Source: Escherichia coli O157:H7 (GTDB lineage: Bacteria > Pseudomonadota > Gammaproteobacteria > Enterobacterales > Enterobacteriaceae). From it: a stretch of DNA of 64,000 nucleotides. The position numbers and the translations under genes are program-made. Where the stretch lies: NCBI RefSeq assembly GCF_013167455.1, contig NZ_CP038328.1; one strand, written 5' to 3'. The number at the start of each line of letters is the position of its first letter. The first letter of the stretch is position 1. The notes beneath the pieces were generated by a model. That model ran no database searches. It was not told the origin of the DNA and was given only the letters and a program-made list of their open reading frames with translations. Below, piece by piece: positions 4,718 to 63,918 of the stretch.

Positions 4718-6960
<2,243 letters not shown>

Positions 6961-35535: not shown

Positions 35536-38082
35536 TCACGAAAAATACTGCTGTAATAGCGGCGTATCGTGATCCTGATTGGCAGGCGGCATGTTACCGA
35601 TAGATTTTGTGCGGAACGGAATCACCTGTTCACGACCATCAACCTTCACAATCTGATAGAACTGCGGCAGGTTGAAGTTGATGAAGCTTGAGCCGTAGGT
35701 AAAACGGTCATGCGATGACGAGTAGAAGCGACTGACGTCACGTACCAGCTCCTCTTTGCTGCCTTCGCAGTGGTGATACACCTCAACCCGATTGCTTTCG
35801 TCGAGAATGTAGATATTAAAGCCATTCTCATCTTGCGTTTCTTCGAAAAAGAACTGGATGATCCCTTCGCTGGCAAAGCCGTCCACCACCGCCGGTAATT
35901 TGACGTGATTGGTTTCAACCTGCACTGACAGGCCGTGCAGTTTGTTATGCGAAATAGCGCCATAAAACTCGATGGCGTTCTCCAGTTTCTGTACCGATAC
36001 ATTCAGGCGTTCGAAGAACAAGCCCCAGGTTTGACCAGAAACGCGCAGCGCCTTGAAACGCCCGGTTTCCTGGCGGGTGCTGGAAAGACGCAATTCAATA
36101 CACTCAGAAACCAGTTGCTGCACGCGAGTACGAATTAAGCCGCGCAGATGCTGGCTATAACAGAAGACTTCCACGCTATCTGGCGGTGCGGCGTCCTGAT
36201 GCATTTTGCCGAGAATAGTTTTCAGGGCTTCGATCATCGATTGCTCGCCGTTGAAGTGCAGCGTACGCACTTCATTCCACGAGTTGCGATACAGCAGGTC
36301 AACGCTACCTACCAGGCAATTTTGATTCTCGCCAAAGCTGAAGACATCCAGCTTACGGAAATCAAAATGCACCACCTGATTGCGGAACGCAGCTGTCGGG
36401 TCATATTCCAGGTTAACGATAATCGCCAGATGGCGGATCTCACACGGGCTGTAGAGCGCCTTCGGTGTCGGTGCAGGTAAGCGCAACGGGAAATGGTGCG
36501 ACACGTCGGCGACCATCTCCTGCAACTTAGGCAAATCGACAATGCCGTTACCTTTAATATACAAGCGGGTGCGCGAGGTCAGCAGGCCGTTAAACCATGC
36601 CCACGCCACCAGTTTATTCAGGTAACGGTTATATTCCAGCGGCTGATGGCTGATGATCGACTCAATATTTGGCGCGCGGTTATACAGATACCAACCTGAA
36701 CGGTTAGCCCGGCCCGGCGGCACATAAATAAAGGTCAGATTCGGTTCCGAGAGATCGGGTGAAATCTGCGGGTTTACCAGCGTCACTTTACCTGGTAATG
36801 CTTCAAACGCGGCATACAGCTTACGCGTCAGCACGCCGATATCCTGCGGACTGGCGGAGACGCTAAGGTTATTGCGACGCGCAAAGCGGATCAGATTACG
36901 GTAGCTCTGCATCATCGCGTCGAGCAACTCGTTGTGCGCCTCACGCACCTGATCAATCTTCCAGTTAGCGCGGTTATCGAGCATTGCCAGACGAGCTTCG
37001 TCCCACCCCCACTCGCTCACTAACTGGCTCAACACTGCGCGACGCCAGCCTACGCAGGCGCGTTCACGGCTGAGCTTTTCGCACACTTTTAAATAGAAGC
37101 AGCGACGTACTAAATCCAGACGGGTGAAATCTTCAATCGCCGTCAGGTATTCAGTAACACGCTCCAGCATCATGCAGTAAGGATCGAGGCCAAACGATAC
37201 AATCTCGCCGTCGTGCAAACGCTGTTTGATATCTTTCGCCAGCAGGCGTGGGTTCGGGTATTCCCAGGAATAGGCTTCCAGCAGCAGTGTCTTCAGCACC
37301 GCTTTGTATGGAGAATCGATACTCTTGTAGAGTTGCCAAAGGCTGGCACCGAAGTATTCTTCAGCGGAAAGCGAGCTTAAGCCGCCGAGATCCAGCCATT
37401 CATTTGGCGTCAGCACGCCTTGTGCGTAGAGCGTCATTACGTAGTCATCGTAATGCTCTTCTTCGTCGCACGGCACCATATTCCACAGAATACGCTTACC
37501 GGCGAGACGCACGGCGGTACGATAAAATTCATCAAGCAGCAGTATATGCTGGGTGGAGCCACAATCTTCGCCCCCCAGACTGCCACTCTCGTTGTGGCGA
37601 AAACGGTTTTCATCAATCAGGAAGAAGCTAACTTCCACACCCAGCGAGGCGGCCCAGCTTTCCAGCAGGCTGCATTTACGTTGTAGCAACTGGCGCTCTT
37701 CGCTATCGAGCCAGGATTGATGACAGACCCAGATATCCAGGTCAGAGGAACAACTTTGCCCTACGGACGAGGTGCTGCCCATGGTGTATACACCAGTAAT
37801 TGGAAGCTCACCTTTCGGCGGGTCCTGTACTGACATTCCACGATACAGTTCAAGCTCGTTCAGGTAGTGGCGTTGAGTTTCATCAGGCGTGTAAAGGCAA
37901 ATGCCTTTGGGAACGTTACCATCAAGGTAACCCGGCATTAGCGGATGGTGATAGTGCAACAATGTCGGCAGTAGACTGTAGACCTGTTGGAATGCAGGCC
38001 CCATAGCAGCAAGCGCGCGATCCACACGCAATTGATTTATGGCATCCAGTCTCTGTTTCAGAGTCTCAATATAGAGGTACAA
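35536..38082 (-). CDS. cyaA: Adenylate cyclase (class I)
   Basis: 848-aa ORF recognised as CyaA; the start codon at 38080-38082 is TTG on the coding strand, as is known for E. coli cyaA. Confidence 0.95.
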
Positions 38083-38468
38083 GACGTATCGCCTGATTTG
38101 CTACCCGTCATGACTGTGATTCCGCCAACATCAACGGTAACACGCGGCATTCGGGATATTTCGTATGTCAAAGGTAACCGTTACCACTTTTCGCGCCTGG
38201 TTTTTTTAGTTTCACGACGAAAAAATGGTCTAAAACGTGATCAATTTAACACCTTGCTGATTGACCGTAAAGAAAGATGCGCTACATACAAGTGTAGCAC
38301 CGTTTATTCTCTGTAAATTCCTTATTACGACGGCGTGAAACGCCTGTCAGGATCCACTGCCAGACCTCATTTTACGGTTTGCGCAGGCGTCTACGTTTCA
38401 CCACAACACTGACATCACTCTGGCAAGGATGTTAGGATGGACCACGGATGATAATGACGGTAACAAGC

Positions 38469-39410
38469 ATGTTAGACAATGTTTTAAGAATTGCCACACG
38501 CCAAAGCCCACTTGCACTCTGGCAGGCACACTATGTCAAAGACAAGTTGATGGCGAGCCATCCGGGCCTGGTCGTTGAACTGGTACCGATGGTGACGCGC
38601 GGCGATGTGATTCTTGATACGCCGCTGGCGAAAGTCGGCGGAAAAGGCTTATTTGTAAAAGAGCTGGAAGTCGCGCTCCTCGAAAATCGCGCCGATATCG
38701 CCGTACATTCAATGAAAGATGTGCCGGTTGAATTCCCGCAAGGTCTGGGCCTGGTCACTATTTGTGAGCGTGAAGATCCTCGCGATGCCTTTGTGTCCAA
38801 TAACTATGACAGTCTGGATGCGTTACCGGCAGGCAGTATCGTCGGGACGTCCAGTTTACGTCGCCAGTGCCAACTGGCTGAACGCCGCCCGGATCTGATT
38901 ATCCGCTCCCTGCGCGGCAACGTCGGCACTCGCCTGAGCAAACTGGATAACGGCGAATACGATGCCATCATTCTTGCCGTAGCCGGACTAAAACGTTTAG
39001 GTCTGGAGTCCCGCATTCGCGCCGCGTTGCCACCCGAGATTTCTCTTCCGGCGGTAGGACAAGGTGCAGTCGGTATTGAATGCCGCCTTGATGATACACG
39101 CACTCGCGAGCTGCTTGCCGCGCTGAATCACCACGAAACTGCACTGCGCGTTACCGCAGAACGCGCCATGAATACCCGTCTCGAAGGTGGATGTCAGGTG
39201 CCAATTGGTAGCTACGCCGAGCTTATTGATGGCGAAATCTGGCTGCGTGCGCTGGTCGGCGCGCCGGACGGTTCGCAGATTATTCGCGGTGAACGCCGCG
39301 GTGCGCCGCAAGATGCCGAACAAATGGGGATTTCGCTGGCAGAAGAGCTACTGAATAACGGCGCGCGCGAGATCCTCGCTGAAGTCTATAACGGAGACGC
39401 CCCGGCATGA
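38469..39410 (+). CDS. hemC: Porphobilinogen deaminase (hydroxymethylbilane synthase)
   Basis: Start at [20 protein letters not shown] (313 aa); recognised HemC. Confidence 0.95.
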
Positions 39411-42674: not shown

Positions 42675-42881
42675 AAAAAAACGCCTGCTCTTATTACGGA
42701 GCAGGCGTTAAAACAGGTCTGTATGACAACAAGTGGGTGCTTCACTCAACGTTGTGTCCATGGTGTCTGATGAGGCATAAGCGACATCTGTCAGTGGACG
42801 ATAAGCACCGTAAACGGCTCTGCGTCATTCCGGAGTTTATGAGGCACTAAGGCGAACATAAGAGATGGAATGAGCATCTAC
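42675..42881 (-). ncRNA. glmZ: GlmZ small regulatory RNA
   Basis: Reverse complement begins GUAGAUGCUCAUUCCAUCUCUUAUGUUCGCCUUAGUGCCUCAUAAACUCCGGAAUGACGCAGAGCC... and ends in a terminator hairpin AACGCCUGCUCCGUAAUAAGAGCAGGCGUUUUUUU, matching GlmZ as I recall it, in its known hemY-aslA intergenic position; the same hairpin on the + strand sits 50 bp after the hemY stop. Confidence 0.8.
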
Positions 42882-46510: not shown

Positions 46511-46587
46511 TGGTCGGCGAGAGAGGATTCGAACCTCCGACCCACTGGTCCCAAACCAGTTGCGCTACCAAGCTGCGCTACTCGCCG
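46511..46587 (-). tRNA. proM: tRNA-Pro (anticodon UGG)
   Basis: Reverse complement = CGGCGAGTAGCGCAGCTTGGTAGCGCAACTGGTTTGGGACCAGTGGGTCGGAGGTTCGAATCCTCTCTCGCCGACCA; full cloverleaf, encoded CCA. Confidence 0.95.
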
Positions 46588-46629
46588 AAATACTGCTTTT
46601 TGAATTTTTAGTTCAATTCTTTAAAGTCG

Positions 46630-46716
46630 TGGTGCGAGGGGGGGGACTTGAACCCCCACGTCCGTAAGGACACTAACACCTGAAGCTAGCGCGTCTACCA
46701 ATTCCGCCACCTTCGC
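46630..46716 (-). tRNA. leuT: tRNA-Leu (anticodon CAG), copy 1
   Basis: Reverse complement = GCGAAGGTGGCGGAATTGGTAGACGCGCTAGCTTCAGGTGTTAGTGTCCTTACGGACGTGGGGGTTCAAGTCCCCCCCCTCGCACCA. Confidence 0.95.
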
Positions 46717-46735
46717 ATTGTCACAACTTCTAATA

Positions 46736-46812
46736 ATGGGGTGGCTAATGGGATTCGAACCTCCGACCCACTGGTCCCAAACCAGTTGCGCTACCAAGCT
46801 GCGCTACTCGCC
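46736..46812 (-). pseudogene. Hybrid pseudo-tRNA: tRNA-Pro 5' portion fused to tRNA-His 3' portion
   Basis: Minus-strand sequence is identical to proM from the 5' end through the 5' T-stem (CGGCGAG...GGGUCGGAGG) and then continues as the hisR T-loop, 3' T-stem and 3' acceptor strand (UUCGAAUCCCAUUAGCCACCCCA); the acceptor stem (CGGCGAG vs UAGCCACC) and T-stem (GGAGG vs CCCAU) cannot pair. Confidence 0.85.
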
Positions 46813-46854
46813 GAAATACTGCTTTTTGAATTTTTAGTTCAATTCTTTAAAGTC

Positions 46855-46941
46855 GTGGTGCGAGGGGGGGGACTTGAACCCCCACGTCCGTAAGGACACT
46901 AACACCTGAAGCTAGCGCGTCTACCAATTCCGCCACCTTCG
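46855..46941 (-). tRNA. leuT: tRNA-Leu (anticodon CAG), copy 2
   Basis: Identical to copy 1; part of the tandem duplication. Confidence 0.95.
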
Positions 46942-46962
46942 CATTGTCACAACTTCTAATAA

Positions 46963-47039
46963 TGGGGTGGCTAATGGGATTCGAACCCACGACAACTGGA
47001 ATCACAATCCAGGGCTCTACCAACTGAGCTATAGCCACC
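46963..47039 (-). tRNA. hisR: tRNA-His (anticodon GUG)
   Basis: Reverse complement = GGTGGCTATAGCTCAGTTGGTAGAGCCCTGGATTGTGATTCCAGTTGTCGTGGGTTCGAATCCCATTAGCCACCCCA. Confidence 0.95.
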
Positions 47040-47096
47040 ACTACAAATCTTGTTACGCGGTATTACTACCACCGCAGCTCAAGCGCCGGGACTAAA

Positions 47097-47173
<77 letters not shown>

Positions 47174-63457: not shown

Positions 63458-63787
63458 TTACGCCAGGTTAGCGTCGAGGAACTCTTTCAACTGACCTTTA
63501 GACAGTGCGCCCACTTTGGTTGCCGCCACTTCACCGTTTTTGAACAGCAGCAGAGTCGGGATACCACGGATGCCATATTTCGGCGCAGTGCCAGGGTTTT
63601 GATCGATGTTCAGTTTTGCAACGGTCAGTTTGCCCTGATATTCGTCAGCGATTTCATCCAGAATCGGGGCGATCATTTTGCACGGACCGCACCACTCTGC
63701 CCAGAAATCGACGAGGATCGCCCCGTCCGCTTTGAGTACATCCGTGTCAAAACTGTCGTCAGTCAGGTGAATAATTTTATCGCTCAT
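63458..63787 (-). CDS. trxA: Thioredoxin 1
   Basis: Recognised TrxA ([41 protein letters not shown]..., 109 aa, CGPC active site); start at internal Met of the 144-aa ORF. Confidence 0.97.
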
Positions 63788-63918
63788 ATATAACTCCACA
63801 GGAATAAGCCTGGCGTGTTGGTTTCGTTGTTGGTGTAACATTAACCAACTAAAGGTTGACTTTATTTCACCGGATACGCTTTCGTAAAGCAATAGTAAGC
63901 TGATATTCTACCACACTA

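Follow-up and report, generated by a model that had tools for sequence, protein, structure and literature searches.

The TTG initiation codon of cyaA in Escherichia coli O157:H7 and its conserved, weak initiation region

Does translation of the adenylate cyclase gene cyaA begin at the TTG with which its reading frame opens in Escherichia coli O157:H7, and is this a codon that keeps the enzyme scarce? Both points were raised by the original prediction for the 64,000-nt stretch of DNA analysed here (hereafter, the window), which set the start of the gene at a TTG and described it as a known weak initiator limiting CyaA synthesis. The first part of this claim is borne out by a direct read of the letters: the plus strand carries CAA at 38080..38082, so that the minus strand reads TTG from 38082 to 38080, and this triplet is codon 1 of an ORF of 848 codons. 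An ORF lister always takes the first ATG, GTG, or TTG past a stop, and a TTG call alone is therefore no proof that the codon is used. The coordinates of this and all other features considered below are collected in Table 1.

The product of the ORF was first placed within its protein family. Pfam assigned the N-terminal catalytic domain PF12633 to residues 5-200 (E = 1.2e-82) and the class I domain PF01295 to residues 228-825 (E = 3.2e-258). The NCBIfam equivalog NF006977 (class I adenylate cyclase) matched with 2050 bits (cutoff, 1761), residues 1-848 aligning with positions 1-848 of the profile. The nucleotidyltransferase-like catalytic motif, made up of G102-S103 and D114-x-D116-x-W118, is invariant in an alignment of 23 sequences that includes the window protein. 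As for the genomic context, the divergent hemCDXY genes lie on one side, with hemC adjoining, and cyaY is found downstream. These domain and equivalog matches, together with the hemC and cyaY flanks, show that the gene had been correctly named: the 848-codon ORF is cyaA and specifies a full-length class I adenylate cyclase for which cAMP synthesis is predicted. The encoded protein corresponds to the O157-type WP_000281680.1, not to the K-12 allele.

Several features in the surroundings of the gene were recorded in their own right. The mechanical hemC ORF (320 aa) opens at ATG 38448, and the hemC start in both K-12 and the RefSeq annotation is 38469, that is, 21 nt downstream, yielding a protein of 313 aa. 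The tRNA cluster comprises six genes in the order Arg-His-Leu-Pro-Leu-Pro, compared with five in the O157 reference annotation, and its middle tRNA-Pro scores just 34.6 bits in Rfam; this arrangement suggests a duplicated Leu-Pro pair, one copy of which is degenerate. Matches to the sRNAs GlmZ and Erse and to the trxA thermometer are ordinary for this E. coli chromosomal region.

Table 1. Features of the cyaA start region and of its surroundings, in window coordinates
Feature	Coordinates	Strand	Basis or remark
cyaA initiation codon TTG	38080..38082	-	Sequence read; same base as the K-12 MG1655 and O157 PV15-279 CDS starts
cyaA coding sequence, 848 codons plus stop	35536..38082	-	ORF list, Pfam, NCBIfam
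In-frame TAG, six codons 5' of the cyaA TTG	38101..38103	-	Closes the frame
First in-frame ATG of cyaA, Met27	38002..38004	-	Internal codon; rejected as start
Weak Shine-Dalgarno-like AGGCGA	38089..38094	-	AGG nine nt before the TTG
15-nt translation-initiation block ATCAGGCGATACGTC	38083..38097	-	Conserved across Enterobacterales
ATG out of the cyaA frame	38109..38111	-	29 nt before the TTG
18-codon upstream ORF	38058..38111	-	Overlaps the cyaA start
CRP-consensus-like site	38236..38251		2 mismatches; cyaA leader/promoter region
CRP-consensus-like site	38115..38130		2 mismatches; cyaA leader/promoter region
hemC, mechanical ORF	38448..39410	+	From ATG 38448
tRNA cluster	46511..47173	-	Six genes
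Middle tRNA-Pro of the cluster	46739..46813		Rfam score
GlmZ sRNA	42675..42881	-	Rfam gathering-level match
Erse sRNA	6355..6606	-	Rfam gathering-level match
trxA 5' UTR thermometer	63758..63857	-	Rfam gathering-level match

The reading frame upstream of the TTG is short. Between the in-frame TAG and codon 1, the cyaA frame reads CAA ATC AGG CGA TAC GTC, with zero start codons among these six triplets, and the TTG is accordingly the first and only canonical start that follows the stop. With a TAG six codons upstream and no intervening ATG, GTG, or TTG, the ORF cannot be extended in the 5' direction. An upstream in-frame ATG that would lengthen the gene, which had been named as the finding that would speak against this start, was looked for and is absent, since the TAG at 38103..38101 shuts the frame. 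On the 3' side, further canonical in-frame starts occur at codons 18 (TTG), 20 (GTG), and 27 (ATG).

Comparison with curated cyaA annotation, the check proposed along with the original prediction, placed the reference starts exactly at the window TTG. In K-12 MG1655, the curated b3806 CDS begins at 3991153 with ttg, which equals the window start base, and the RefSeq CDS of O157 PV15-279 begins at the base equivalent to window position 38082. The region hardly varies within the species. Of 5425 complete E. coli genomes, 5418 agree at every one of the 60 nt from -30 to +30 of the start, and the single deviating sequence that was inspected carries a change at -24 that leaves the TTG untouched. 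A 761-nt segment covering the start and its upstream sequence has a counterpart in all but one of 5426 complete E. coli genomes (5425) and shows 100% identity to an O157:H7 chromosome.

Conservation beyond E. coli was assessed in a sample of one genome per species, retrieved with a degenerate pattern on the catalytic motif (cyaA codons 101-118). This pattern lies ~300 nt 3' of the start and does not include it, so that the sample cannot be biased by the start codon. It uncovered 120 loci in Gammaproteobacteria, 116 of them with enough upstream sequence (117 sequences with that of the window), and the homologous codon was then located by aligning the translated upstream-open regions. TTG occupies this position in 28 of 30 Enterobacterales (the window counted among them), in all 13 Vibrionaceae and all six Aeromonas, in three of five Shewanella/Moritella/Psychromonas genomes, and in one of two Pasteurellaceae. 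Neither ATG nor GTG occurs at this codon in any of the sampled Enterobacterales, Vibrionaceae, or Aeromonas. Overall, the named orders and families with a short N-terminus have TTG in 51 of 60 genomes, to which one unclassified metagenome-assembled genome is added. Among the sampled short-N-terminus loci, ATG appears at the homologous codon solely in two Orbaceae, and GTG takes the place of TTG in none of the 52 TTG-type lineages, which belong to several orders and range from Aeromonas to Escherichia. In 32 of these 52 loci, no other canonical start lies between the upstream stop and the TTG. The conserved leucines 8 and 24 of these sequences are encoded by TTG in only 7 of 90 cases (~8%), the others including 43 CTG, 19 CTT, and 16 TTA. 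Since TTG is rare at ordinary conserved leucine codons, the invariance of codon 1 indicates selection on the triplet and not on leucine. Judging from these alignments, strong purifying selection acts on the TTG and on the 15 nt that precede it.

This 15-nt block has the consensus ATCAGGCGAnAyGTC over Enterobacterales genera, and the leaders beyond it are unalignable. From -15 to -1, the mean pairwise difference is ~0.07-0.37 at most sites and lacks codon periodicity; further upstream it amounts to ~0.72. The best duplex predicted between the Shine-Dalgarno-like element within the block and the 3' end of 16S rRNA has an energy of -2.9 kcal/mol. A single C-to-A change would convert AGGCG into AGGAG, a motif found in none of the cyaA leaders compared among Enterobacterales. 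The conservation of AGGCGA along with the absence of AGGAG suggests that the weak Shine-Dalgarno and the TTG are both held in place. RNA folding of the region from -50 to +60 yielded an energy no different from that of shuffled sequences (z = -0.48), and no unusual structure that would hide the TTG is predicted.

Other sequences in the leader were noted separately. The ATG that lies out of the cyaA frame opens an 18-codon ORF overlapping the cyaA start; an ATGACGG motif occurs at equal distance before cyaA in Citrobacter sp. FP75 as well, and the other genera are devoid of it. This upstream ORF is probably fortuitous. The more distal of the two CRP-consensus-like sites, at 38236..38251, is similar to the CRP site described for promoter P2 of cyaA, and CRP-like matches across the window are not above chance. 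A promoter consensus scan of 38000..38500 returned two 9-of-12 matches, about the chance level, neither of them convincingly placed for cyaA.

How would such a start limit the enzyme? The UUG of the cyaA mRNA would be decoded by the initiator tRNA as (f)Met, and its poorer pairing with the initiator anticodon, relative to AUG, would let few ribosomes initiate; the weak Shine-Dalgarno AGGCGA would add to this poor initiation and keep the CyaA level low. The start-codon mutagenesis of 1985 was reportedly done with plasmid constructs. Its outcome, as cited in PMC5499595 (Reddy, Peterkofsky and McKenney 1985), was that UUG, GUG, and AUG yielded adenylate cyclase in a ratio of 1:2:6, which would set the output from UUG at ~1/6 of that from AUG. 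This ratio lends support to the second part of the earlier claim, namely that known weak initiation limits CyaA. PMC5499595 cites Roy et al. 1983 for the cyaA control region and also describes the UUG start in many Enterobacterales and other Gammaproteobacteria. Low translation may be the trait selected in the cyaA TTG: selection would keep initiation weak, and with it the levels of CyaA and hence of cAMP, excess adenylate cyclase or cAMP being harmful. Both the TTG start and its conservation are already published, the former known since the 1980s, and our data leave this picture unchanged.

Two alternative readings would place the start elsewhere. According to one of them, the TTG is simply what an ORF lister reaches when extending to the first ATG, GTG, or TTG past a stop, and translation truly begins at Met27 (38004..38002). 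This residue is conserved in 50 of the 52 TTG-type sequences, and the Shine-Dalgarno energy upstream of it at least equals that before the TTG (predicted duplexes of -3.1 and -2.9 kcal/mol, respectively), which means that these energies do not discriminate between both codons. In Enterobacterales, Vibrionaceae, and Aeromonas, however, the amino acids at positions 2-26 are conserved, and most changes at third codon positions are synonymous. Within Enterobacterales, pairwise differences over codons 2-26 are 0.10/0.02/0.40 at codon positions 1/2/3, whereas upstream of -18 they are saturated and devoid of periodicity (0.72/0.71/0.73); codon periodicity sets in right behind the TTG. R11, N16, R19, and R22 are nearly invariant, distant homologues included, the PF12633 match starts at residue 5 and the NCBIfam equivalog at residue 1, and the TTG is itself conserved together with the preceding 15 nt. 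Moreover, mutation of the UUG alters enzyme yield (PMC5499595). The coding constraint on codons 2-26 implies that translation must span them and excludes Met27 as the main start; we regard initiation from there as highly improbable. The other reading has the ORF run further 5' to an in-frame ATG preceded by a ribosome-binding site of its own. The ATG 29 nt upstream (38111..38109) is the candidate. In a draft contig of Escherichia albertii NBRC 107761, a 1-nt insertion relative to E. coli (tagcGaaatc), ~30 nt before the cyaA TTG, abolishes the in-frame TAG and brings this ATG into the cyaA frame, ten codons before the TTG. This insertion may be a draft-assembly error. In the window, by contrast, this ATG lies outside the cyaA frame and starts an ORF of just 18 codons, the TAG closes the cyaA frame, and the upstream sequence is not conserved from genus to genus and shows no coding periodicity. 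An upstream extension is therefore refuted for the window, and we give it a negligible probability. We are nearly certain that the minus-strand TTG at 38082..38080 is the real cyaA initiation codon and that it initiates weakly, keeping CyaA scarce.

A further alternative accepts the TTG as the start and concerns the reason for its conservation, which might lie in UUG-specific regulation (relative insensitivity to ppGpp, IF2 limitation, and cold) and not merely in lower output. The proposal, made in PMC5499595, is that starved cells would in this way sustain their production of CyaA. UUG mRNA is reported there to stay competitive under such conditions, and the fact that GTG, also weaker than ATG, never replaces TTG in the 52 lineages is mildly favourable to this idea. 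Nonetheless, ATG is used by Orbaceae and by the Pseudomonas-type enzymes, and plain dosage limitation accounts for the same pattern, the weak Shine-Dalgarno being jointly conserved; we consider UUG-specific regulation unlikely. The joint freezing of the TTG, AGGCGA, and the exact 15-nt block could also be taken to mark the cyaA initiation region as a specific regulatory target, a reading to which we assign a low probability. If so, initiation may be tuned to the state of IF3, IF2, or ppGpp, the region may be a binding site for an unknown RNA or protein, or, in Escherichia and Citrobacter, initiation may be coupled to the overlapping out-of-frame upstream ORF.

With initiation at the TTG and limitation of enzyme dosage as the preferred explanation, the main use of these results is as an annotation check, for which the comparative data fix the cyaA start firmly. 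Gene callers that prefer ATG could cut CyaA back to Met27, and those faced with an open upstream frame, as in E. albertii, could wrongly extend the N-terminus; two proteins in our homologue search carried such an upstream extension. Biologically, the cyaA TTG is a classic case, in print since the 1980s, of a weak start codon that controls dosage.

The closest known system is cyaA of K-12 (b3806), whose sequence from -60 to +60 of the TTG (120 nt) is the same as that of the window and which likewise has 848 codons, a TTG start, and hemC and cyaY as neighbours; apart from the O157-type allele of the window protein, nothing relevant sets the two genes apart. Aiba et al. 1984 is reportedly among the sources for the UUG initiation codon of K-12 cyaA. 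The AUU starts of infC and pcnB are comparable to the cyaA UUG in that a non-AUG codon lowers initiation and is phylogenetically conserved (PMC5499595). In infC, however, the AUU serves as the sensor in an IF3 autoregulatory loop. We know of no such feedback for cyaA. Finally, the Pseudomonas-type class I adenylate cyclases (NCBIfam PRK09450.2 models) possess a homologous catalytic N-terminal domain and have the motifs MGS, Q, and SD-x-D-x-W in common with CyaA. They differ in an N-terminal extension of ~15 residues, whose first codon is ATG in 38 of 39 sampled Pseudomonadaceae loci, and at the position of the E. coli TTG they have an internal Asp codon, GAC or GAT.
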